A program made the translations under genes and the position numbers. Positions 1 through 10,240 of a stretch of 10,240 bases of DNA are shown piece by piece; within the stretch, counting starts at the first letter, position 1, and every line of letters starts with the position of its first letter. Origin of the DNA: a virus (Duplodnaviria > Heunggongvirae > Uroviricota > Caudoviricetes); the IMG/VR virus record IMGVR_UViG_2529292726_000022, positions 1 through 10,240 of that record; one strand, written 5' to 3'. A model generated the notes under the pieces. That model was not told where the DNA came from, searched no databases, and was given only the letters and a program-made list of their open reading frames with translations.

Positions 1-1820
1 CCACCGAGATCCAGCGTCAGGCGCAGCAGTTTGTCAGAACCTTCGACAAACTCCGCGTTTTCAATCAGCGCCACACGCAGGTCAACTTTGGCGAAGTCGT
101 CAAAGGTGATGGTTTCCTGAATCGGGTCGTCAGCCAGTGGGCCAGTTACCGGTGCAGCTGTGGCTTTCACTTCTTCTTTGGATGCTTCCACCAGTGCTTC
201 CACCTGTTTCATATCGATACGGTTATACAGTGCCTTGAACGGATTCACTTTATGGCCCAGCAGCGGTTGCTGGATACCATCCCAGGTCAGTTCTGTATTC
301 AGGAATGCTTCTGCACGTTCAGTCAGTTTCGGCAGTACCGGTTTCAGGTACGTCATCAGCACGCGGAACAGGTTAATGCCCATAGAGCAAATCGCCTGCA
401 GATCGGCATCGCGTCCTTCCTGCTTCGCCACCACCCACGGAGCCTGTTCATCAACATAGCGGTTAGCCAGGTCAGCCAGTGCCATGATTTCACGGATAGC
501 TTTGCCAAATTCGCGGCTTTCCCATGCTTCGCCAATCACTTCAGCGGCATCAGTAAAGGTTTTGTACAGTTGCGGGTCAGCCAGTTCGCTTGCCAGCACG
601 CCGTCAAAACGCTTGTTGATAAAGCCTGCATTACGGGAGGCCAGGTTAACCACTTTGTTAACGATATCGGCATTCACACGCTGAACGAAATCTTCCAGAT
701 TGAGATCGATATCATCAATGCGCGAAGAGAGTTTCGCAGTGTAGTAGTAACGCAGGCTGTCGGCGTCAAAATGATTCAGCCAGGTGCTGGCTTTAATAAA
801 GGTGCCGCGAGACTTGGACATCTTCGCGCCGTTCACCGTCACATAGCCGTGAACAAACAGGTTGGTCGGCTTGCGGAAGTTGCTGCCTTCCAGCATGGCA
901 GGCCAGAACAGGCTGTGGAAGTAAACGATATCTTTGCCGATGAAGTGGTACAGCTCGGCGGTGGAGTCTTTCTTCCAGTAATCGTCGAAGCTGGTAGTGT
1001 CGCCGCGTTTGTCGCACAGATTCTTGAAAGAACCCATGTAGCCAATCGGCGCGTCCAGCCAGACGTAGAAGTATTTGCCCGGTGCGTTCGGAATTTCAAA
1101 ACCGAAGTAAGGTGCGTCACGGGAGATATCCCACTGTTGCAGGCCAGATTCAAACCACTCCTGCATTTTGTTTGCCACCTGCTCCTGCAACGCACCGCTG
1201 CGGGTCCATGCCTGCAACATTTCGCTGAAAGAAGGCAGATCAAAGAAGAAGTGTTCGGAATCACGCATTACCGGTGTAGCGCCAGAAACCACTGATTTCG
1301 GCTCGATCAGTTCCGTCGGGCTGTATGTCGCGCCGCAGACTTCACAGTTATCGCCGTATTGATCCGGCGCTTTACATTTCGGGCATGTGCCTTTTACAAA
1401 ACGGTCCGGCAGGAACATGCCTTTTTCCGGGTCGTACAGCTGAGAGATGGTGCGGTTTTTAATAAAACCGTTCTCTTTCAGGCGAGTATAGATAAGCTCG
1501 GACAACTGACGGTTCTCTTCGCTGTGCGTCGAGTGATAGTTGTCATAGCTGATGTTAAAGCCTGCGAAATCAGTCTGATGTTCCTGACTCATTTCGCCAA
1601 TCATCTGCTCCGGTGTGATACCAAGCTGCTGTGCTTTCAGCATGATCGGCGTACCGTGGGCATCGTCGGCACAGATGAAATTAACCTCGTGGCCGCGCAT
1701 TCGCTGGTAACGAACCCAGACATCAGCCTGGATGTGCTCCAGCATATGGCCGAGGTGGATTGAGCCGTTAGCGTACGGCAGCGCGCACGTCACCAGAATT
1801 TTCTTCGCGACTTGGGTCAT
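1..1820 (-). CDS. metG: Methionine--tRNA ligase (MetRS), partial: N-terminal ~606 codons in window, C-terminus beyond window start
   Basis: Minus-strand translation from ATG (complement of 1818-1820) reads [29 protein letters not shown]... with the class I aaRS HLGH motif (encoded ~1746-1757) and KMSKS (encoded 810-824). The frame stays open to position 1, so it is absent from the ORF track (no stop in window). Plus-strand ORFs 160-459, 252-1295, 484-684 are antisense shadows. Confidence 0.95.
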
Positions 1821-1977
1821 AGTAGGCATTACTTCTTTGTAGTGAAAAGGGGCTTGATAGTAACAAAATGGCCTTATGTCTGCCATGTGATAACAGCATT
1901 TCTCATAAATGATTAAATGTCGTAGCTGGAGTACACTACAAGGCGACAATTGCGCAAATTAAAATAAAGGAGACGGG
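1821..1977. promoter_or_regulatory. Divergent metG / mrp intergenic promoter region
   Basis: 157-bp AT-rich gap between divergently oriented starts; SD-like AAGGAG at 1967-1972, 5 nt before the mrp ATG (1978). Individual -10/-35 elements not resolved by eye. Confidence 0.5.
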
Positions 1978-3078
1978 ATGAGCGAGTCCAAATCGCCGGA
2001 TGCCCTGAGAGCAATGGTAGCCGGTACGCTGGCTAATTTTCAGCACCCAACCCTGAAACACAACCTGACTACGCTTAAAGCGTTACACCATGTTGCGTTG
2101 ATGGATGACACACTGCATGTCGAACTAATCATGCCTTTCGTGTGGAATAAGCCTTTTGAAGACCTGAAAGAGCAATGTAGTGGTGATCTGCTCCGTATCA
2201 CTGGCGCAAAGGCTATTGACTGGAAGCTGTCGTACAACATTGCCACGCTTAAGCGCGTCAAAAACCAACCAGGCATTAATGGCGTTAAGAACATTATCGC
2301 CGTCAGCTCAGGCAAGGGCGGCGTGGGTAAATCCTCCACGGCGGTAAACCTGGCACTGGCGTTGGCTGCTGAAGGTGCGAAAGTTGGTATTTTGGATGCC
2401 GATATCTATGGTCCATCAATTCCAACCATGCTGGGCGCGGAAAACCAACGTCCAACCTCACCTGACGGTACTCACATGGCACCTATCATGTCTCATGGCC
2501 TGGCAACCAACTCTATTGGTTATCTGGTCACCGACGACAATGCAATGGTGTGGCGTGGACCGATGGCCAGCAAGGCGCTGATGCAGATGTTGCAGGAAAC
2601 TCTATGGCCTGATCTGGACTATCTCGTTCTCGATATGCCGCCGGGCACTGGTGATATTCAGTTGACGCTGGCGCAGAACATTCCTGTAACTGGTGCGGTT
2701 GTGGTAACTACGCCGCAAGACATCGCGCTGATCGATGCGAAGAAAGGCATTGTGATGTTCGAAAAAGTCGAAGTGCCGGTACTGGGTATCGTCGAAAACA
2801 TGAGTGTGCATATTTGCAGTAACTGCGGTCATCACGAGCCAATTTTTGGCACCGGTGGCGCACAGAAACTGGCCGAGAAATACAACACGCAGTTGTTAGG
2901 CCAAATGCCACTTCATATCTCTCTTCGTGAAGATCTGGATAACGGAACACCAACCGTTATTAGTCGTCCAGATAGCGAATTTACAGCTATTTATCGTGAC
3001 CTCGCAGATCGCGTTGCTGCCCAAATGTATTGGCAAGGTGAAGTAATACCTGGCGAAATCGCATTCCGCGCAGTGTGA
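1978..3078 (+). CDS. apbC: Fe-S cluster carrier ATPase Mrp/ApbC (NBP35 family)
   Basis: 366-aa ORF with SD; deviant Walker A SSGKGGVGKSST, CxxC motif (CSNCGH), and the MSESKSPDALRAMVAGTLANFQHP... N-terminus typical of enterobacterial Mrp; conserved divergent arrangement with metG. Confidence 0.95.
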   Translation: MSESKSPDALRAMVAGTLANFQHPTLKHNLTTLKALHHVALMDDTLHVELIMPFVWNKPFEDLKEQCSGDLLRITGAKAIDWKLSYNIATLKRVKNQPGINGVKNIIAVSSGKGGVGKSSTAVNLALALAAEGAKVGILDADIYGPSIPTMLGAENQRPTSPDGTHMAPIMSHGLATNSIGYLVTDDNAMVWRGPMASKALMQMLQETLWPDLDYLVLDMPPGTGDIQLTLAQNIPVTGAVVVTTPQDIALIDAKKGIVMFEKVEVPVLGIVENMSVHICSNCGHHEPIFGTGGAQKLAEKYNTQLLGQMPLHISLREDLDNGTPTVISRPDSEFTAIYRDLADRVAAQMYWQGEVIPGEIAFRAV

Positions 3079-3083
3079 TAAAA

Positions 3084-3104
3084 AGGCGGTGCATTGCACC
3101 GCCT
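3084..3104. terminator. GC-rich hairpin (aggcggtgc-att-gcaccgcct) between convergent mrp and UmuD'-like gene
   Basis: 9-bp perfect stem, 3-nt loop. On the minus strand it is followed by TTTTTAT (complement of 3077-3083), a good intrinsic terminator for the minus-strand gene ending at 3116. On the plus strand it is preceded by AAAA but lacks a U-tract. Confidence 0.6.
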
Positions 3105-3115
3105 AATCAGTTCTC

Positions 3116-3505
3116 CTACATCACGGGACAATCATCAAACTCGCCACTTCTTGCGTCGTTGATAATGTGAGTGATCACACCAAACACGGCATTGCTGCCC
3201 GTGCATGCATCGTCATCCTTTGGCAATGCTTCCTTCTTACCGGTTCTTAAATCCTCCAGATGCTGACGTGGGTACTTCCGGTATCTTTTTACGCGATATT
3301 CCCCATCCAGAGCGCATACAAGCAGAGAACCATCAACCGGGGTAAGTGAGGAATCGACCACCAGCAATGCACCCTGTAATATTCCCTCACGATGATGACT
3401 ATCAGCTGCCCTCATGAAGTAGGTCGCTGAAGGATGTCTAATTATCTGCTGATCAAGAGAAATACGGCTCTCAGCATAATCCGCCGCAGGAGAAGGGAAG
3501 CCCAT
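3116..3505 (-). CDS. UmuD-family S24 peptidase, natively N-terminally truncated (UmuD'-like), 129 aa
   Basis: Starts MGFPSPAADYAESRISLDQQIIRHPSATYF..., co-linear with UmuD from the residue after its Cys24-Gly25 self-cleavage site. Ser of the Ser-Lys dyad retained (AADSH vs UmuD SGDSM), Lys retained (VKRYR vs VKKLQ). In-frame TAA 12 nt upstream of the ATG (complement of 3518-3520) rules out an N-terminal extension. SD AAGAGG precedes ATG. No umuC-like gene follows. Confidence 0.8.
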   Translation of the reverse strand: MGFPSPAADYAESRISLDQQIIRHPSATYFMRAADSHHREGILQGALLVVDSSLTPVDGSLLVCALDGEYRVKRYRKYPRQHLEDLRTGKKEALPKDDDACTGSNAVFGVITHIINDARSGEFDDCPVM

Positions 3506-3521
3506 AATACTCGCCTCTTAA

Positions 3522-3541
3522 CACTGTATATACATACAGTA
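3522..3541 (-). promoter_or_regulatory. LexA operator (SOS box)
   Basis: Minus-strand TACTGTATGTATATACAGTG: CTGT-N8-ACAG palindrome matching the consensus TACTGTATATATATACAGTA at 17/20, about 16 nt upstream of the UmuD'-like start codon, the same geometry as the E. coli umuDC operator. Confidence 0.8.
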
Positions 3542-3566
3542 TATGTTGAAGCTATATATTTTTGAA
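3538..3566 (-). promoter_or_regulatory. Putative sigma70 promoter of the UmuD'-like gene, overlapped by the LexA box
   Basis: Minus-strand -35 TTCAAA (complement of 3561-3566), 17-nt spacer, -10 TATACT (complement of 3538-3543); the -10 overlaps the upstream half of the LexA box. Confidence 0.5.
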
Positions 3567-3725
3567 CTCTATCTCTTAAAAAAGATGTTAATAAGATGCT
3601 AACTATTGAAAGGCATAAATATATACAATTCCAACAAACGTTATTTTTAACAAATTTTTTCTCTCCGTTGACTTTTGCGAAAGCCTTGTCTGGCCTAAAT
3701 TGCGCGGAAGCTACTTTTTCCTTAC

Positions 3726-3750
3726 AGAGTTATCCACAGAGTTATGCACT
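3726..3750 (+). repeat. Tandem 12-bp repeat containing DnaA-box-like 9-mers
   Basis: agagTTATCCAC / agagTTATGCAC in direct tandem (3726-3737, 3738-3749). TTATCCACA at 3730-3738 is a perfect DnaA box consensus; TTATGCACT at 3742-3750 matches TTATNCACA at 8/9. Confidence 0.3.
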
Positions 3751-3836
3751 TGCATGTATAACCTATACACACTATCTTAATTCGCAAGACACTGATGTTG
3801 CGGTATTGAAGGTTCATTGGGTTAAAAATAGACATT

Positions 3837-3867
3837 AAAAAGCCCAGTTGACTAGGCTGGGCTTTTT
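3837..3867. terminator. Bidirectional intrinsic terminator hairpin
   Basis: AAAAAGCCCAG-(9-nt loop)-CTGGGCTTTTT: 11-bp perfect inverted repeat with an A-tract 5' and T-tract 3', so it is U-tract-flanked on both strands. No confident CDS ends at it on either strand. Confidence 0.65.
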
Positions 3868-3900
3868 AAAAGGAAACAGAGTTTGCGGCTCTGTTCCTGA

Positions 3901-3920
3901 GCCATAAGTATCTGGCGACT
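3901..3920 (+). repeat. Direct repeat copy 1 (gccaTAAGTATCTGGCGACT)
   Basis: 20-bp sequence repeated at 4074-4093 with one mismatch (16-bp identical core TAAGTATCTGGCGACT at 3905-3920 and 4078-4093). Confidence 0.7.
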
Positions 3921-4073
3921 GAATTAAGATTAACCGAATGTACTGGATTCATCAAGAAACGTTGAGTGGTCATACCAGGTAATAATGACCATTTACTAAA
4001 CATCGTTGTTCTCAAAGAAGATTTAAGTCCAGGTTTTTGGTGACTCTAAAACCTTACCTTAACTCGAAATCGT

Positions 4074-4093
4074 GCCGTAAGTATCTGGCGACT
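4074..4093 (+). repeat. Direct repeat copy 2 (gccgTAAGTATCTGGCGACT)
   Basis: Second copy, 173 bp downstream of copy 1; preceded by AAATCGTGCCG (4066-4076), which recurs inside the small ORF at 4189-4199. Confidence 0.7.
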
Positions 4094-4167
4094 ACAGATA
4101 TTGCAACTGCAAAGGCAAGCCCAAAGGTATTTGCAGCTAGGCGCGATAAAACTAAGTGAGGCCTGTT

Positions 4168-4251
4168 ATGGTTAACTTACTGTTCAAAATCGTGCCGCCG
4201 ATGTTCGCGATTATCAAAGCGATCATTGAGTACGTAAACCAGCGTCCATAA
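4168..4251 (+). CDS. Candidate small hydrophobic protein, 27 aa (MVNLLFKIVPPMFAIIKAIIEYVNQRP)
   Basis: ATG at 4168 preceded by SD-like GTGAGG with 6-nt spacing; stop TAA 4249-4251; terminator hairpin 14 nt downstream. Peptide is mostly hydrophobic with a charged C-terminal tail. Too short for the ORF track. Confidence 0.3.
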   Translation: MVNLLFKIVPPMFAIIKAIIEYVNQRP

Positions 4252-4264
4252 CGCTAGTTGCTAC

Positions 4265-4297
4265 AGGCCCCATCAAGAGCATGGGGCCTCTTTATCG
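4265..4297 (+). terminator. Hairpin (aggcccca-N9-tggggcct) plus CTTTAT tract downstream of small ORF
   Basis: 8-bp GC-rich perfect stem followed by a short T-rich tract on the plus strand. On the minus strand it sits 18 nt past the stop of the operon's last gene (4307) but has no U-tract in that direction. Confidence 0.5.
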
Positions 4298-4306
4298 TAC
4301 TATTGC

Positions 4307-4933
4307 TTATTTTTTACGGACTGAGTTGTTCACTGCTCTGGCAATCTTCTCCCGCAATTGCTGCGTTCCGTGGTACTGAACCGCAATATCTCTCAACTCG
4401 TTCACCAGTTCTCGAATCTGGTGATCTTTAAGCTCATTATTTGGGTGATTGGTAACAACTCTGGTTAATTCACCCTTGTCTTTTGCTCTTACGTATGCAG
4501 CTCTTGTGCATTCGACCCATGTATTACCGCCTACATTAACTTCGTAGATTAGGCTGGACTTATCTGTCAATTCGGAACAAATACGGGCCGTGGTCTGGCA
4601 ACTAGAGCATTCGCAGTTATCGCGGAAACCGTGATCTACCGGTCGAGAAAGAGGTTTAACTTTTTCATCCAACTTCATCACAGCATCGTGATAAGCGTTC
4701 CAGCCGTCATCTTTACCAAGTTGATAAATCTCTGAAGGCTCCATGTAGTCTATATCGCAACCTTCTTCATCCGATCTATCTGGTCGCTTCCCTGGTAATC
4801 GCTCATAAAAACGATTTCTGTCTCGACGTTCGGCTCTCAGTGCTAACGCAAGAAGTTGCTCAAGCGAGGTATTTGCACCAGCAATAATTTCATTGAGAAT
4901 ATCTTCTGTGAGATCTTTCGCTACCGTGCTCAT
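4307..4933 (-). CDS. Hypothetical protein, 208 aa (last gene of operon)
   Basis: Long minus-strand ORF; ATG (complement 4931-4933) overlaps the stop of the upstream gene (ATGA); contains a Cys cluster (CECSSCQ). No recognisable family by eye. Confidence 0.7.
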   Translation of the reverse strand: MSTVAKDLTEDILNEIIAGANTSLEQLLALALRAERRDRNRFYERLPGKRPDRSDEEGCDIDYMEPSEIYQLGKDDGWNAYHDAVMKLDEKVKPLSRPVDHGFRDNCECSSCQTTARICSELTDKSSLIYEVNVGGNTWVECTRAAYVRAKDKGELTRVVTNHPNNELKDHQIRELVNELRDIAVQYHGTQQLREKIARAVNNSVRKK

Positions 4934-5313
4934 TTATCTCTCTCAGTATGTTGCGATGGCGTAAATTTGACGACATCAAATATTTTGGATGGCATCAACT
5001 TTATCCGCGAGCTTAGTTCGGCTCTTCTCTGTAATGCGGTTAATAATGTTTTCGTTCTGACGCCTTCGTGTATCCTCATCCCTGGCACAAGAACTACATC
5101 GCAGGGGAGATGCTCAGGTGACAAATCATTTTGGGCATCGCTAATCAGTCGTGTAATCTCTCTTTCAAGCCGACCGCCTAGCTCTGTTTTAGTGCAATGT
5201 TCTGACCAATCGCCAGCCTCAAGCAGCGCGAGAATGCTTAAAATATCGTCCAATAGATCAGTGGTATTATCGACTTCCTTCTGAAGCTCACCGGCTACTG
5301 ATTTATGCATCAT
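4930..5313 (-). CDS. Hypothetical protein, 127 aa
   Basis: Minus-strand ORF starting ATGATG (MMHKS...), start overlaps stop of upstream gene (ATGA at 5310-5313). Confidence 0.7.
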   Translation of the reverse strand: MMHKSVAGELQKEVDNTTDLLDDILSILALLEAGDWSEHCTKTELGGRLEREITRLISDAQNDLSPEHLPCDVVLVPGMRIHEGVRTKTLLTALQRRAELSSRIKLMPSKIFDVVKFTPSQHTERDK

Positions 5314-5963
5314 TCGTCATCCTCATCCGAGTCATCCTCATCACAGGATGAGAGTAGTGGGTTAGTCATTCGCCCTACTTGAGTGGCATAGCCACGCCGA
5401 CAGAGATTGCGCAGCACACTGTATATTTCGAACATCTCGGTTCGTTCATCGCCAACATCAAGCTCAGATGCTATAGCGTGGCATTCAGTCGCGAGAGCCG
5501 ATATTTTCTGAAATAACTCTGCATTATTCACTGTTCGACTCCTGCGGCGTTCTGGTAGTGGCATCCAGTGTGTGGCATTGCTAATCAGACCATATTCATT
5601 AGTTTGAGGATGGTTGCCGTTATCGTCTCCGTATTTAAGACTCTCCATAAAGCCATAATGCCTATCACCATTAACGCTCACAAAGCCGTAATAAGCAGGT
5701 ATAACGCCGATCTCACACATAACCAGTAACGGAAAACTAGTTCTCCAATTTAGCTCGCCAATTACAGGCATTCGCTCACTACAGCTTATCCAACCATCCT
5801 TAGATGCGGCTGTATTGGCATAGGCCTTACGGTGCTTCTGTAGCTCTGCTGCAATCGCTCTCACGACTTCAACTGGTGCCCTTGCAGCAAACTCAATGTT
5901 GGTGATCAGCTCATTAAGATATTTCTCGCTTGGGTAGCATTTCTTATTGTTAACGGTGGTCAT
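5310..5963 (-). CDS. Hypothetical phage-type protein, possible DUF551-like domain, acidic C-terminal tail, 217 aa
   Basis: Minus-strand ORF; motifs DGWISCSERMPV ... ATHWMPLPE resemble the W-I-S-x-x-x-R-(L/M)-P ... HWMPLP signature I associate with prophage DUF551 proteins (memory-based). Ends in DEDDSDEDDE. Start ATG overlaps upstream stop (TAATG). Confidence 0.7.
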   Translation of the reverse strand: MTTVNNKKCYPSEKYLNELITNIEFAARAPVEVVRAIAAELQKHRKAYANTAASKDGWISCSERMPVIGELNWRTSFPLLVMCEIGVIPAYYGFVSVNGDRHYGFMESLKYGDDNGNHPQTNEYGLISNATHWMPLPERRRSRTVNNAELFQKISALATECHAIASELDVGDERTEMFEIYSVLRNLCRRGYATQVGRMTNPLLSSCDEDDSDEDDE

Positions 5964-6148
5964 TAGGCAGCTCTCTCAACAACAAGCAATTCGTCGTAGT
6001 CATAATCAGTTTCGGAACCATCCGTACCGAACAGAGTCACTTTGTCATTTTCCATCCAAAAAGATTTAACCGCACATTGTTGACCTTTAGATGTTATGAG
6101 CACATCACCAGGGATTACGTCTTCAGCGCGAACCTCTAGTGTTCTCAT
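5963..6148 (-). CDS. Hypothetical small protein, 61 aa (MRTLEVRAEDVIPGDVL...)
   Basis: The ORF track starts at a TTG (6184) inside the upstream gene; the ATG at complement 6146-6148 has a strong SD (AAAGAGGG) about 7 nt upstream and lies 4 nt after the upstream TAG, so is preferred. Confidence 0.6.
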   Translation of the reverse strand: MRTLEVRAEDVIPGDVLITSKGQQCAVKSFWMENDKVTLFGTDGSETDYDYDELLVVERAA

Positions 6149-6152
6149 CGTG

Positions 6153-6566
6153 CTAACCCTCTTTGGTGAAAACGCCTGATGCAATACTGTTTATGATGCT
6201 GTCAGTACAGGGAGTAGAAAGCTGGGCATCTCCAGCTATTTTCATGACTTCGACATCCGCATATCGAATACCGAGGTGTATCAGACCTGCTATACCTGAC
6301 TTAAGTCGAACATTTTCCATAAACAGATCCTTTTCCCGCTGTTTAACGGTCTCCAGCTCAACACGCAACTTCTCAATTTCGGCAGCCATGTAGTAACCAA
6401 CCATAGCGAATACGGCAAAAGAGTTGTCTGCCTCATCAGGCGACACTGAGGCCATTAGCAGACCATCGTAATAATCGTGACTCCCATTGGTGATCGCCAC
6501 CGCATAGGAGTCGTGGTTCTCACGCTTGTGAATGAGAACTACGGGGTTTTCGATTTTGTTACTCAT
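6153..6566 (-). CDS. Hypothetical protein, 137 aa
   Basis: Minus-strand ORF with ATG at complement 6564-6566, preceded by AAGAGAAAAACAC; central charged segment (EIEKLRVELETVKQREKDLFMENVRLK) suggests a helical/coiled region. Confidence 0.7.
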   Translation of the reverse strand: MSNKIENPVVLIHKRENHDSYAVAITNGSHDYYDGLLMASVSPDEADNSFAVFAMVGYYMAAEIEKLRVELETVKQREKDLFMENVRLKSGIAGLIHLGIRYADVEVMKIAGDAQLSTPCTDSIINSIASGVFTKEG

Positions 6567-6704
6567 GTGTTTTTCTCTTCTTTGCTGTTACATAAGCACT
6601 ACCAAGTGCTGGTTTATTTTCACAAATAAGAAAAGGTAGAAAACAATTTATTTAAGGCCACAACTTATGGCCTTTATTTATTCATGCCGAAGGATTTGTA
6701 GCGT

Positions 6705-7085
6705 CTAATTGCCGGATAAAATGGGGTGAGGTGCTTGCCAGTAGGCTCCACCGGTCCATGTGAACCCCATGCGAATAAGAGGGTTTATTGCGGCTTTGGT
6801 AGACTCCGATTCGACACTGGCTTTTCGAAACTCTTGAACCTCTTTCGCCAACCTGTATGTAATTGTGCAGGGGACGATTGCAGCCCAGCCTTTCTCATGA
6901 CTGTTAATGACCATCTGGATGTGACCATCCAGAATAGGTTGATTAGGCATGTTATTGAAAACGTCTGCCTGTTTTTGAATGTGAATAAAAAGCCTTGCCA
7001 GCTCCATTTGCTCACTACGAGACAAGGGATTATCAAGAGGGCTTTTTGCAAAAGCGGCTATACGCTGTGCGTCAATGCCAAACAT
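6705..7085 (-). CDS. Hypothetical protein, 126 aa
   Basis: Minus-strand ORF; ATG overlaps the stop of the upstream gene by 1 nt (TGATG at 7083-7087). Confidence 0.7.
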   Translation of the reverse strand: MFGIDAQRIAAFAKSPLDNPLSRSEQMELARLFIHIQKQADVFNNMPNQPILDGHIQMVINSHEKGWAAIVPCTITYRLAKEVQEFRKASVESESTKAAINPLIRMGFTWTGGAYWQAPHPILSGN

Positions 7086-7789
7086 CAGCGCACCTCACCA
7101 TCTTTATGGCTGGAGTTAACTTCCGCCATTAAATGTCTGACGTAATCGACAAGAGAGCCACCTGGTGGAATCTGGCATTCCTCAACTAACTGGAAGTAGA
7201 TATCCGCTGCATTACGTGTATTGCTACCCGCACATATTCTTTCTTCCCGAAGTGCATGAAGCTCGTTGATCAAACGGTCACACTCTCCGTTACGCTGATC
7301 CACAACGGCCTCAAGCTCTGCGACGCGTTCACCTGGCGTCTTACCTTCTTTGCGTTGGATGGTAACGACGAAATCGCCAATTGCAGGGACGTTGTAATCC
7401 AGCTCAAGGTAGTTTTTGGCACCGCTGCGGACGAACTCACCCGCGAACATGGTGGCGAACATCGCAGAGGCCACTTCGCCGTTGAAAAGTGACTCAAGAT
7501 CTAACGGAGTCCCGGCAGCAAGAGCCTCTTTTGCTGTATCCATTGCATCCATGAACCGATCAAACTCACTAGCGCGCTTTTCCATGTCTTTCCATTGCTC
7601 GCTCCAACGTTTGGCAACGAAGTCTATGAATGTTTTCGCGGATTCATCAAAATTCCCCTCAAACTTAACGATGCCTTTATCAATAATAATCTGGCCTACC
7701 GCATCCTCTGCATAACCTTTCAATGTAAACTTGAAAGGAAAATCAGAATGGCCTGTGACGTTAAAATGCTCTAACTGGAGGTTGTTCAT
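7085..7789 (-). CDS. Hypothetical protein, 234 aa
   Basis: Minus-strand ORF with ATG at complement 7787-7789, preceded by the same AAGAGAAAAACAC initiation region as the 6153-6566 gene. Confidence 0.7.
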   Translation of the reverse strand: MNNLQLEHFNVTGHSDFPFKFTLKGYAEDAVGQIIIDKGIVKFEGNFDESAKTFIDFVAKRWSEQWKDMEKRASEFDRFMDAMDTAKEALAAGTPLDLESLFNGEVASAMFATMFAGEFVRSGAKNYLELDYNVPAIGDFVVTIQRKEGKTPGERVAELEAVVDQRNGECDRLINELHALREERICAGSNTRNAADIYFQLVEECQIPPGGSLVDYVRHLMAEVNSSHKDGEVR

Positions 7790-7850
7790 GTGTTTTTCTC
7801 TTATCGTTTAGTTACTACATTCTTACACAAATTAAGTAAGTATTTACCTA

Positions 7851-9536
7851 TCATTTAACGCGTTTGAAAACGTATACGCTGACTGTGATCCCGGTATCTT
7901 CAAACTCGTTGGTAAACGACTTCCCTCTGGCATAAACGTAATTATCCATCGTCATCCAGTCCAGTATTGGCGCAGTGCCCGGCAATACTGCTACAAGACG
8001 CCCGCCGACTTTCAGATGCCCCAGCGCAGCCAGCGTGTGCTCTCTATGACGACCAAGCGAGTACGGCGGGTTCATAACGATTTTGTCGAACTGATAACCT
8101 GCGTTGTCCTCAGACCACTTTATGAAGTCGCAGCAAATCGTGTTCGTATACCCTTTTCCACGCAGGATATCAGCGAAGAGAGGTGCGATTTCTATGCAGG
8201 TAACATCTTCCAGATCGGCGTTAATATAGGCCAGAAGATCCCCACGTCCGGCTTGAGGCTCCAGCAGCTTCTCACCAGGCTTCAATTCAGTGGCTCTGGC
8301 AACGTACTCAGCAATCAAGCGTGGGGTAGGGTAGAACTGGTGTGATTTTGTATCCGGTATTAAACCGGTAGCCACAATCGTATTTAGCGTATGGCCGATG
8401 TCATACGGGAACTGCCAGTGCTTTTTCTCCTGCACGCCGCCAATGAAGCTCAGTGTGCGCTCAAGCTCTTCCACCTGCGACTTCTGGAGAGCTGAATCAG
8501 AGAAGTACCATACGCCTTTGTCTTTGCTCAATCGCCCGTCACGAAGCGCAGTGCGAACCGGCACGGAGATCGTCTTCTGGATTAACCCGAACTGCTTTGG
8601 TGCCCGTGTTTTTGGCGCAGTTCGGCATGGCGCGGGAATTGCAGCAGGCATACTGTAAGCCAGCACCTCATTCAACTTCCAGGCCACGTCAGGATGTATT
8701 TCAAAGTGAACGTTGCCGTTCTTGAACATCTTCACGCGCATCAGATTTCCATCGACGTTCATCCAGTCACCGGTCTGGCAGTCGTTTGCCCGATACGCAG
8801 CTGATAGCACCTCAGCAGTGCGGTTGATGGTAATAAATTCTTTGTGCGCGAAGAAATGAAGCAAGACACGCAGATCGTCGATGTAGTCCTCTTTGCGATA
8901 GTTCACGCTAACGCTGTCCCGCCAGAAATCAGAAATGCAGTCAGCGATTATCAGACGCTCGCTGAAACCGTTTGTCTTATTTGTCTTGTGCGCAGGACTC
9001 AGCGCCTTAAACAAGCCATACACGCGCTCAGAGAGATATTTGTGCCTGTCATTCAGCAAATTAAGCATCGTGGGTATGACCGTTTCTGCTTTGAACTCCG
9101 GTACACCAACGAACTCTTTAACCTTCATCTGGTAGCCGGTTCTGTCAGTTTTGATGACTTCCTGTTTGCCCTCTATAAACTGCTCGCGCCACTCATCTCG
9201 ACGGGAAGCTGGCATGATCAGCAAAACGTTAGTCATGTCCGTGACCTTCCTCCAGTACTCGGCCCAAATATTCTGTTTCACCCATTCCAGATCGACTTTA
9301 TCCAACCAACCTCGATTTAAACGCGAGCGATCTTCATCTGGTCGATGGTTTAGTCTCAGCAGGCGATTAATCATGTTGTGGCGTTCGTCGCCATAAACGA
9401 AGTCGTGTACCTGATACATGAAGGCGATCTCTTTCTCGCACTCGGCCACGATTTCGTGGATGACATTCATTTCCTGACGATAGTCGATAGCCGTGTTTGA
9501 GCTGGCATCGTCGCTGATGGAAAGGGCTGTATTCAT
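7851..9536 (-). CDS. 561-aa protein: ~380-aa N-terminal region of unknown function plus C-terminal gamma-class N6-adenine (amino) methyltransferase domain
   Basis: Motif order FYPTP (motif X-like), LEPQAGRGD (motif I; EPQAGRGD encoded 8238-8261), ~55 aa, then MNPPY (motif IV, encoded 8061-8072), typical of gamma-class amino-MTases. Only ~70 aa follow NPPY, so no obvious C-terminal target-recognition domain. First gene of the operon. Confidence 0.8.
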   Translation of the reverse strand: MNTALSISDDASSNTAIDYRQEMNVIHEIVAECEKEIAFMYQVHDFVYGDERHNMINRLLRLNHRPDEDRSRLNRGWLDKVDLEWVKQNIWAEYWRKVTDMTNVLLIMPASRRDEWREQFIEGKQEVIKTDRTGYQMKVKEFVGVPEFKAETVIPTMLNLLNDRHKYLSERVYGLFKALSPAHKTNKTNGFSERLIIADCISDFWRDSVSVNYRKEDYIDDLRVLLHFFAHKEFITINRTAEVLSAAYRANDCQTGDWMNVDGNLMRVKMFKNGNVHFEIHPDVAWKLNEVLAYSMPAAIPAPCRTAPKTRAPKQFGLIQKTISVPVRTALRDGRLSKDKGVWYFSDSALQKSQVEELERTLSFIGGVQEKKHWQFPYDIGHTLNTIVATGLIPDTKSHQFYPTPRLIAEYVARATELKPGEKLLEPQAGRGDLLAYINADLEDVTCIEIAPLFADILRGKGYTNTICCDFIKWSEDNAGYQFDKIVMNPPYSLGRHREHTLAALGHLKVGGRLVAVLPGTAPILDWMTMDNYVYARGKSFTNEFEDTGITVSVYVFKRVK

Positions 9537-9577
9537 AATTACACCATTAAATAATTTGTTTTCTGATTGGTGTAATT
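9537..9577. promoter_or_regulatory. Perfect 9-bp inverted repeat abutting the methyltransferase start codon
   Basis: AATTACACC-N23-GGTGTAATT (9537-9545 / 9569-9577) directly adjacent to the ATG at 9536, so on the mRNA it covers the ribosome-binding region. Candidate operator or 5'-UTR stem-loop. Confidence 0.4.
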
Positions 9578-9633
9578 ATCGCAAACTTGAAAAGGCATAA
9601 AAGCTGCATTCATAGGCGTTACAGCAGATTTAA

Positions 9634-9660
9634 GGCGTAAAAATGGGGGCTGTCGCCCCC
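9634..9660 (-). terminator. Intrinsic terminator of the small gene 9678-9914
   Basis: Minus-strand GGGGGC-GACA-GCCCCC hairpin (9645-9660) followed by ATTTTTAC, 18 nt past the stop codon. Confidence 0.6.
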
Positions 9661-9677
9661 TGTCGACTGGTGCTGTA

Positions 9678-9914
9678 TTAGAGTGCGTATTGCGTTTTGT
9701 GCGGCTGCTTATTCAAGTCATGGCGATGCGTGAGCTCCCGCATCATGTCTTCAAGGCGACTCTTTGTGTCGTCGAGCTGGTCGGCCATTGCACCTAAAAG
9801 CTGGCGAACGGCCATCGGATCGTCGCTGTTTAGTGATGGCATTTTAGAACCTGCTTTAGAAGACATAAGGTTGATTGCAGACATCAACATCGTTAGAGAG
9901 GTATTAGACGTCAA
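9678..9914 (-). CDS. Hypothetical small protein (up to 78 aa; true start uncertain)
   Basis: Minus-strand ORF with its own terminator. The track start is a TTG; internal ATGs (MLMSAINL..., MPSLNSDD...) are alternative starts. The 5' end abuts the presumed IS21-family terminus, so it may be the 3' remnant of a disrupted gene. Confidence 0.45.
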   Translation of the reverse strand: MTSNTSLTMLMSAINLMSSKAGSKMPSLNSDDPMAVRQLLGAMADQLDDTKSRLEDMMRELTHRHDLNKQPHKTQYAL

Positions 9915-9918
9915 CTAG

Positions 9919-10240
9919 TTTTGCCGACTCGCGCCAACTATACTGGCCGCACCCTTCAGTGCGACATCAAGTCGCGCTTGTTACTGCCTTCGCTGTCTTT
10001 TTCCTGTAGCTTTCACCTTTCAGTTCGAACATATATCCGTGATGGATCAGCCGGTCTGCCGCCGCCACCGCCATAGTCTCATCCACGAAGATGCTGCCCC
10101 ACATGCTGAACGGATGGTTACTGGTTATCACCAGGCTCCCACGTTCATAGCGATGCGCTATTAACTCGAACAGTACTCCCGTTTCGGCGCTGTCGCGTTT
10201 GACATAGCCAAGATCATCCACCACTATCACCCGGTAGCGA
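9919..10240 (-). mobile_element. IS21-family insertion sequence, istB-proximal end (partial; exact terminus not determined)
   Basis: Inferred from the istB fragment; the terminal inverted repeat should lie in about 9919-9966, downstream of the istB stop, but I could not identify it by eye. Confidence 0.55.
9967..10240 (-). CDS. istB: IS21-family transposition helper ATPase IstB, C-terminal part (5' end beyond window)
   Basis: ...IVVDDLGYVKRD...LFELIAHRYERGSLVITSNHPFSMWGSIFVDETMAVAAADRLIHHGYMFELKGESYRKK... matches the IstB Walker B-to-C-terminus signature (D-D/E-L-G-Y, RYE, TSN, DRLxHH, ELKGESYR). The track's M at 10230 is internal. Confidence 0.9.
   Translation of the reverse strand, partial: RYRVIVVDDLGYVKRDSAETGVLFELIAHRYERGSLVITSNHPFSMWGSIFVDETMAVAAADRLIHHGYMFELKGESYRKKTAKAVTSAT

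Follow-up and report, generated by a model that had tools for sequence, protein, structure and literature searches.

A phage P1-type humD gene with a predicted LexA box on an SSU5-like phage-plasmid

Organization of the locus

The stretch of DNA analyzed here, called the window throughout, is 10,240 nt long and contains a UmuD′-like gene, humD, on its minus strand. The gene and the signals around it are as follows.

3116..3505, minus strand: humD coding sequence, 129 codons plus a TAG stop (ORF list, NCBIfam NF051876, identity to P1 HumD)
3514..3519, minus strand: Shine-Dalgarno motif AAGAGG, 8 nt before the ATG (read directly; aligns with the umuD leader)
3518..3520, minus strand: in-frame TAA, 12 nt 5′ of the humD ATG (direct sequence reading)
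3522..3541, no strand assigned: predicted LexA (SOS) box TACTGTATGTATATACAGTG (search for CTGT-N8-ACAG; aligned with the P1 LexA site and the umuDC box)
3538..3566, minus strand: predicted sigma-70 promoter, −35 TTCAAA (3561-3566), 17-nt spacer, −10 TATACT (3538-3543) (consensus scan, 9/12 matches)
3084..3104, minus strand: intrinsic terminator of humD, 9-bp GC-rich stem, 3-nt loop, then UUUUUAU (terminator scan and RNA fold)

The humD product has 129 amino acids, begins with an ATG codon and reads MGFPSPAADY...EFDDCPVM. The codons leading into the start are taa gag gcg agt att ATG, and none of those between the stop and the ATG is a start codon, so that a longer N-terminus of HumD is ruled out, as had been claimed in the original prediction. 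In the alignments, the UmuD′ crystal chain 1umu_A starts opposite Gly2 of HumD, and in full-length UmuD (8gmt_B) the partner of Gly2 is Gly25, which bears out the second claim made about the start, i.e. that the open reading frame begins at the equivalent of UmuD Gly25.

The protein matched the NCBIfam equivalog NF051876, “HumD family translesion DNA polymerase”, with 219.8 bits (cut-off 120; E = 8.1e-66), and the match ran end to end, from residues 1-129 of the protein to positions 1-129 of the 129-position profile. The scores for the NCBIfam models of UmuD (NF007621, 87.5 bits, cut-off 110) and LexA (27.3 bits, cut-off 110.95) were below the respective cut-offs, and the Pfam family PF00717 (S24) was matched partially, by residues 1-80 with 38 bits. 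Among solved structures, UmuD′ was on top (1umu, E = 4.7e-23; 1i4v), accompanied by UmuD in 8gmt, while the LexA chains had values of about 1e-3. The protein is thus far closer to UmuD′ than to repressors of the LexA type, an alternative that had been named for checking.

In a pairwise comparison with P1 HumD, 117 of the 129 residues were identical (91%), without gaps. Searches of phage genomes with tblastn gave identities of 99.2% for Cyrano, 91.5% for humD of P7, 90.7% for humD of P1, 89.9% for D6 and 71% for phiKO2. The PHROGs category is “UmuD-like protein”, and RefSeq lists the protein as WP_001404347.1, “HumD family translesion DNA polymerase”, with a 100%-identical gene on E. coli plasmids of ~112 kb. 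The UmuD′-like gene of the window is an ordinary copy of humD of the phage P1 type. Its family is known and already curated, and the window's humD holds no novelty; the novelty implied by the original prediction fails in view of the full-length match to a curated equivalog and the name already given in RefSeq. An AlphaFold2 model computed from the shallow family alignment (40 sequences, all at least 67% identical) had a mean pLDDT of 48.3 and a pTM of 0.39 and was unusable. An Rfam scan of the whole window gave no match.

Apart from the LexA box TACTGTATGTATATACAGTG, the window has no CTGT-N8-ACAG site; shuffled versions contained 0.14 such sites on average, and 22 of 200 shuffles carried at least one. 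The box differs at two positions from the textbook LexA consensus, TACTGTATATATATACAGTA. In alignments, the box falls on the umuDC box of E. coli and on the sequence marked as a LexA site in the P1 record. It overlaps the predicted −10 hexamer TATACT by 4 nt and spans the expected transcription start, and at the level of sequence a near-consensus LexA box over the promoter had been predicted correctly. The box had also been described as having the same geometry as in umuDC. This was compared relative to the start codon, and by that measure the spacing is similar without being the same, since 16 nt separate the end of the box from the ATG in the window, and 19 nt in umuD and in P1.

The scan for promoters in the region yielded three sites, and 2.5 are expected by chance. 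Because this yield is about the chance level, the humD promoter is a prediction only, and the hexamers alone do not prove it. In front of E. coli umuD and P1 humD, the same consensus scan detected no such pair of hexamers. The predicted operator suggests that humD in the window would be under LexA/SOS control. At the other end of the gene, the terminator hairpin has a folding energy of −18.6 kcal/mol (z = −4.49 against shuffles) and is placed between humD and the convergent gene apbC (1978-3078).

Genomic setting

Positions 1-9905 of the window match the plasmid pCUVET20-PYO4.2 (NZ_CP115378.1, 111,925 bp) with 99.2% identity. Beyond position 9905, the window contains a fragment of an IS21-family istB gene, which is absent from the records of pCUVET20-PYO4.2 and phage Cyrano. 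The window, Cyrano and pCUVET20-PYO4.2 have the gene order around humD in common, i.e. a DUF4942 methyltransferase gene, Ea22/Ead-like genes, humD, apbC and metG. The plasmid contains genes for replication and partition (RepB initiator, ParB proteins), for the virion (terminase, portal, capsid, tape measure, tail fibre) and for DNA metabolism (RecA, DnaE, primase, DnaB-like helicase, NrdAB, thymidylate synthase, DfrA51), as well as four tRNAs. It is an SSU5-type phage-plasmid; dfrA51 has been described in phage-plasmids of this type (PMC12217456).

The metG-apbC pair of the plasmid is 88.3% identical to the K-12 chromosome at the DNA level, and the proteins are 98.5% (MetG) and 94.8% (ApbC) identical. 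The original prediction had humD terminated and converging on “mrp”. The terminator and the convergent apbC are indeed present, but the supposed mrp belongs to this plasmid-borne metG-apbC pair and is not a chromosomal landmark. The chromosomal “island” in which the gene had been placed is refuted, because metG, apbC and humD all reside on an SSU5-like phage-plasmid.

A tblastn search of the window with E. coli UmuC gave no match at E ≤ 1e-5, the best chance match having E = 2.5, and the best value for the whole 111.9-kb reference plasmid was E = 1.6. No Y-family polymerase is listed in the annotation of that plasmid. The claim that no umuC follows humD is therefore correct for both the window and the plasmid; the terminator and the convergent apbC are found in its place. 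The umuDC genes are present on E. coli chromosomes.

Of 5,426 complete E. coli genomes, 765 contained related DNA, and in 672 of these at least 80% of the query was covered. The share of genomes with related DNA is ~13%, roughly one in eight. The related DNA occupied 691 plasmid and 113 chromosomal places, and the chromosomal places among the matches listed covered only about a fifth of the query. The humD-related DNA of E. coli genomes is mostly carried by P1-like and SSU5-like phage-plasmids.

Conservation of the active site and the C-terminus

According to the alignment, Ser36 and Lys73 of HumD are the equivalents of Ser60 and Lys97 of UmuD, and both are present in the window copy. Among 40 family sequences, the nucleophile position is occupied by serine in 26, threonine in 13 and alanine in one, and Lys73 is invariant (40/40). 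The GDSM motif is degenerate in the HumD family; it has become A-DSH with a deletion of one residue, and the preceding Asp position is freely variable. One member of the family, from Cedecea (locus L112), has Thr in place of the catalytic Ser and Arg in place of the Lys. The gene is nonetheless intact, it has a LexA box, and a full umuC starts 8 nt after it. The peptidase chemistry of HumD thus appears to be dispensable, which agrees with a protein that is made without any need for cleavage; the active site would have lost its use and is decaying across the family. The catalytic residues had been predicted to be retained, which is correct for this copy, but the weight given to the dyad is not justified in view of the variable serine and the degenerate motif.

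The C-terminal extension, ...INDARSGEFDDCPVM, is present and is nearly invariant across the family. The family pattern INDARxxEFDDCPV(M/I) occurs in the window copy and is absent from UmuD. The extension had been called unique; it exists, but it is a hallmark of the whole HumD family. We know of no role for this conserved tail. Since its acidic part, EFDDCPVM, has no counterpart in UmuD′, HumD may do something that UmuD′ does not.

For a survey of the family, 160 loci (80 viral, 80 genomic) were scored for start codon, upstream stop, LexA box and UmuC. The close homologs, with identities of at least 89%, are highly uniform: the position of the ATG is shared by all 45 loci, each has a CTGT-N8-ACAG box 18-21 nt upstream of it, and a UmuC match within 4 kb is missing in every case. 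An in-frame stop lies 2-4 codons upstream of the start in 44 of the 45. The exact tail EFDDCPV(M/I) is found in 41, and the other four are point variants or have a 3′ frameshift.

The loci of lower identity (41-49%; L127-L167) are mostly of the UmuD type. In 39 of these 41 loci, the cleavage position has a Cys codon and the frame upstream of it stays open for at least 23 codons, in 36 the LexA box is located 84-94 nt upstream of the Gly25 codon, and 37 have a downstream umuC, nearly always within a few bases of the stop.

A third group, with identities of ~70%, comprises viral contigs of lambdoid size and enterobacterial prophages. Start and tail are as in HumD, and a LexA box within 120 nt was present in only three of 36 viral loci. 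The box is thus missing in many of these lambdoid prophage members, showing that SOS control is not universal in the HumD family. The upstream frame is often open in this group, which accounts for database entries of 148-223 amino acids; their N-terminal extensions have no likeness to the UmuD arm in alignments. It had been suggested to search relatives for a frameshifted or longer N-terminus, and none resembling a lost UmuD arm was seen in the survey. The frame of 129 codons, the start and the tail are common to more than 100 loci from several groups of phages and phage-plasmids.

Origin and selection

For the window humD and P1 humD, we calculated a dN of 0.046, a dS of 0.80 and a dN/dS of 0.057. 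The value is based on the comparison with P1 only, as the Nei-Gojobori dS is saturated with the members of ~70% identity. It indicates strong purifying selection, so that humD is no relic.

In an alignment of the upstream DNA, the LexA box, leader and ATG of E. coli umuD match those of humD, and the ATG of humD then directly joins the Gly25 codon. The junction between promoter and codon 25, which had been proposed for inspection, indeed has the appearance of a clean deletion of codons 2-24 that spared the regulatory region. Because start, box and tail are common to several phage groups, the loss event would be old.

A tblastn search with full-length UmuD also gave a similarity upstream of the ATG that ran across the stop codon, KIYSFNIYCMYIQC* versus EIVTFPLFSDLVQC, which was considered as a possible remnant of the N-terminal arm. 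This candidate was rejected, as the similarity is the translated promoter and LexA box. Its “QC” needs a G as the last base of the box, and Cyrano, P1 and almost every homologous locus have an A there.

Comparison with known systems

HumD of P1 (and also of P7, D6 and SJ46) resembles the protein described here in many respects. P1 HumD has 129 residues, the start is at the equivalent of UmuD Gly25, and the tail is EFDDCPV(M/I). There is no umuC partner, the carrier phage lives as a plasmid, and the LexA box is found at a similar distance from the start. The differences concern the surroundings. The host element here is an SSU5-like, siphovirus-type phage-plasmid. In P1, humD is located between the divergent, LexA-regulated gene lxr and phd-doc, whereas here it converges on apbC-metG, and a homolog of P1 Lxr was found neither in the window nor on the plasmid (best matches E = 2.7 and 0.63). 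The letters of the LexA box also differ, i.e. TACTGTATGTATATACAGTG in the window and TACTGTATAAATGAACAGTA in P1. The P1 GenBank record places the LexA site 19 nt before the humD start, notes that it is shared with lxr, and states that humD “functionally complements E. coli UmuD'”.

In the work of McLenigan and colleagues of 1999, P1 HumD is said to be UmuD′-sized, to have no cognate umuC, to form dimers and to bind UmuC and RecA filaments. It is reportedly poorly expressed, with good complementation only from a high-copy plasmid. A stand-alone, shortened and LexA-regulated UmuD′ homolog without a cognate UmuC has been reported for P1 (PMC7092418, PMC9603915).

Even closer are phage Cyrano (CYRAN_98) and plasmids of ~110 kb such as pCUVET20-PYO4.2, in which the gene is 99-100% identical and has the same context. 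The last base of the LexA box is an A in Cyrano, in contrast to the G in the window.

E. coli UmuD and UmuD′ belong to the same fold family. Residues 2-118 can be aligned with ~39-43% identity, FPSPAADY follows right after the cleavage site, and the layout of LexA box and leader is alike. However, UmuD has an N-terminal arm of 24 residues, a Cys-Gly cleavage site and an operon with umuC, and HumD of the window has none of the three. Further differences on the side of HumD are the degenerate GDSM motif, the conserved acidic tail of 13 residues and a longer loop before the last strand.

MucA, ImpA, RumA and SamA are SOS-regulated proteins of the UmuD type encoded on plasmids or ICEs. SOS regulation of such genes of mobile elements has been described (PMC11541004). 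In contrast to humD of the window, which has neither feature, they are full-length proteins subject to RecA*-mediated cleavage and have their own UmuC homolog in the operon (PMC7092418). Repressors of the LexA and lambda CI type share a distant likeness in the S24 catalytic domain (PF00717; LexA chains E ~1e-3). They have an N-terminal DNA-binding domain, whereas the 129-residue HumD has none, and the match is ~20 orders of magnitude weaker than that to UmuD′.

Discussion

Taken together, we propose that humD is the phage or phage-plasmid version of umuD, which is carried by an SSU5-like element, encodes an already processed UmuD′ and makes use of the UmuC of the host. We estimate the probability of this reading at roughly 85%. 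In the undamaged cell, host LexA bound to the box over the −10 region and the transcription start would keep humD off, as suggested by the sequence and by the annotated P1 ortholog. DNA damage would inactivate LexA and lead to production of a 129-residue protein that, as judged from the aligned start position, begins at the equivalent of UmuD Gly25 and would not need RecA*-assisted self-cleavage. By analogy with the 91%-identical P1 protein, a HumD dimer could then join host UmuC and RecA in a hybrid DNA polymerase V. If HumD acts like its P1 ortholog, the outcome would be earlier or extra translesion synthesis on damaged DNA of the host or the element, with the slow RecA*-dependent cleavage being skipped.

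Less probable by far is that HumD serves as a modulator or decoy, which would bind host UmuD in heterodimers, the alpha or beta subunits of Pol III, DinB or RecA filaments. The effect would be equally improbable, i.e. that host replication is slowed or redirected during the SOS response, e.g. to free replication factors for the phage-plasmid. A passage of PMC4713147 cites Silva et al. 2012 for the binding of UmuD and UmuD′ to Pol III subunits, and the authors of that article argue that SOS polymerases make Pol III available for the replication of P1. Additional points are that hot, encoding a homolog of Pol III theta, is close to humD in P1, that the element described here has its own dnaE and recA, and that the C-terminal tail peculiar to the family could offer an additional surface for interactions. 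However, complementation of UmuD′ is the sole recorded function of the 91%-identical ortholog, and no result of this analysis points to a decoy role. At least one family member, that of the Cedecea operon with its full umuC, agrees with a role as a genuine polymerase subunit.

It is very improbable that HumD is an active S24 peptidase that cuts host UmuD, LexA or the element's repressor in trans. Intermolecular cleavage by UmuD-like proteins is on record, and the window copy has both Ser36 and the invariant Lys73. This is opposed by the variable nucleophile (Ser, Thr or Ala) and the degenerate GDSM motif with its one-residue deletion, by the Cedecea gene, which is intact and paired with umuC although both residues are replaced, and by the Pfam S24 match, which is limited to residues 1-80 with 38 bits.

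That humD is a decaying remnant of umuD, which lost its 5′ end and umuC by deletion, is effectively refuted: the box, Shine-Dalgarno motif and ATG of umuD do align with those of humD as though codons 2-24 had been removed, and umuC is missing downstream, but the dN/dS of 0.057 at a dS of 0.80, the conservation of frame, start and tail in more than 100 loci of several phage and phage-plasmid groups and the end-to-end match to a curated model show that the deletion, if real, was ancient and became fixed as a functional design.

An extension of the proposed role as a ready-made UmuD′ is that HumD is more than a pre-cut UmuD′, with the tail as a new motif for interaction or stability and a function in element-specific damage tolerance. 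We regard this as unlikely; three features prompt it, namely the near-invariant acidic tail, a peptidase site in decay, and a RecA and a DnaE that the element itself encodes. The RecA and DnaE leave room for HumD partners that are specific to the element. The tail might shield HumD from the turnover by ClpXP or Lon that limits UmuD′, or might tie HumD to replication or recombination proteins of the element. If this were true, the phage-plasmid would have a private pathway of damage tolerance and not a mere boost of the host's polymerase V.

The core of the original prediction was right as far as a sequence can tell: the gene stands alone, has a LexA box in its promoter and encodes a naturally shortened UmuD′ homolog that would use host UmuC. 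This agrees with the literature on P1 HumD. A reading confined to the letters thus rebuilt a known design; it could tell neither that the design was known nor that “mrp” was plasmid-borne. The value as a discovery is small, since the family is curated and its prototype, P1 HumD, was characterized in 1999. For the biology of E. coli, the finding means that widespread phage-plasmids, which often bear resistance genes, carry the gene for a ready-activated mutagenesis subunit, with a LexA box, into clinical strains. The humD genes of phage-plasmids could therefore be relevant to antibiotic-induced mutagenesis.

Genes surrounding humD

The genetic surroundings of humD were analyzed on both sides. 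The 3' flank is occupied by two divergently oriented genes:

1-3078 (within), minus strand: metG, partial, divergent from apbC
1978-3078, plus strand: apbC/mrp, divergent from metG

In a comparison with the E. coli K-12 chromosome, the DNA identity of the pair is 88.3%, and the protein identities are 98.5% for MetG and 94.8% for ApbC. Both genes are carried by the phage-plasmid, and the pair looks like a captured housekeeping cassette that is maintained by purifying selection.

Upstream of humD, about 740 nt (3566-4306) are devoid of a convincing ORF, and a scan with Rfam yielded no match for this stretch. It is conserved at 90-96% in the three related loci that share the region (L010, L011, and L088), and the following elements were identified:

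about 3730-3749, plus strand: DnaA-box pair TTATCCACAGAGTTATGCAC, with a sequence match to the P1 region upstream of hot
3841-3858, minus strand: terminator-like hairpin
4265-4289: terminator-like hairpin

The pair of DnaA boxes corresponds to an annotation of the P1 genome, i.e. "two predicted DnaA boxes". Further upstream, the genes are organized as follows:

4307-9536, minus strand: operon of small phage accessory genes
5310-5963, minus strand: DUF551 protein, within the operon
7851-9536, minus strand: DUF4942/DNA methyltransferase-like protein of 561 aa (PHROG 6263), within the operon

In the Escherichia phage Cyrano, the counterparts of the operon genes are annotated as Ea22-, Ead-, Eaa-, and Eae-like. 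The DUF551 gene is intact in the window, whereas it is a pseudogene in the reference phage-plasmid NZ_CP115378.1.

The similarity of the window to the reference phage-plasmids ends at 9905, and one further feature was found at the right end:

9967-10230, minus strand: ORF with the C-terminal portion of IstB, an ATPase of the IS21 family (Pfam PF01695)

The segment 9906-10240 suggests an IS21 element that was inserted in a hypothetical gene. The junction at 9905/9906 is absent from every complete E. coli genome of the collection searched.

Possible further SOS-related features of the reference phage-plasmid

Two additional features of NZ_CP115378.1 (L005) were noted, in its own coordinates:

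4413-12776: element-encoded RecA and DnaE genes
18468-18487: second near-consensus LexA box CACTGTATAAGTAAACAGTA, between a tyrosine integrase gene and grxA

The total number of CTGT-N8-ACAG sites on this element is four, compared with a shuffle mean of 1.7. The second LexA box may link another function of the element to the SOS response. Downstream of dnaE, a gene for an HNH endonuclease and a frameshifted helix-hairpin-helix fragment are located. The proteins encoded in this region are possible partners of HumD.

Variants of HumD and exchange of the humD module

A HumD-type gene for 125 aa is present in Cedecea sp. S5-13 (NZ_JBHIKW010000004.1; locus L112, whose part 4001-5654 holds this gene and umuC). 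Its product has the C-terminal tail EFDDNPCM, and Thr replaces Ser and Arg replaces Lys; a LexA box lies 17 nt upstream of the gene. The gene is followed, after 8 nt, by umuC in full length (756 bits), and therefore an operon pairing a pre-shortened UmuD' with UmuC also exists. The locus adjoins a large upstream ORF, which may be a phage tail gene.

Homologs with about 70% identity were found in lambdoid-sized phages and prophages (L051 and L053-L087), and mostly do not have a LexA box within 120 nt. Their upstream frame is often open, and therefore the databases contain HumD versions of 148-223 aa (P0019, P0025, P0043, P0059, and P0062). The extensions bear no likeness to the UmuD arm, i.e. 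the 24 N-terminal residues absent from HumD, and are probably over-called starts.

Some P1-like loci contain an additional, gene-less copy of the humD leader and promoter of the window (L040, 2307-2539; also L015, L018, L037, L042, and L044). This copy is 81-82% identical to 3506-3754, is situated 1.46 kb upstream of the respective humD gene, and half of its LexA box is deleted. It looks like a scar that was left by an exchange of the humD module among phage-plasmid families.
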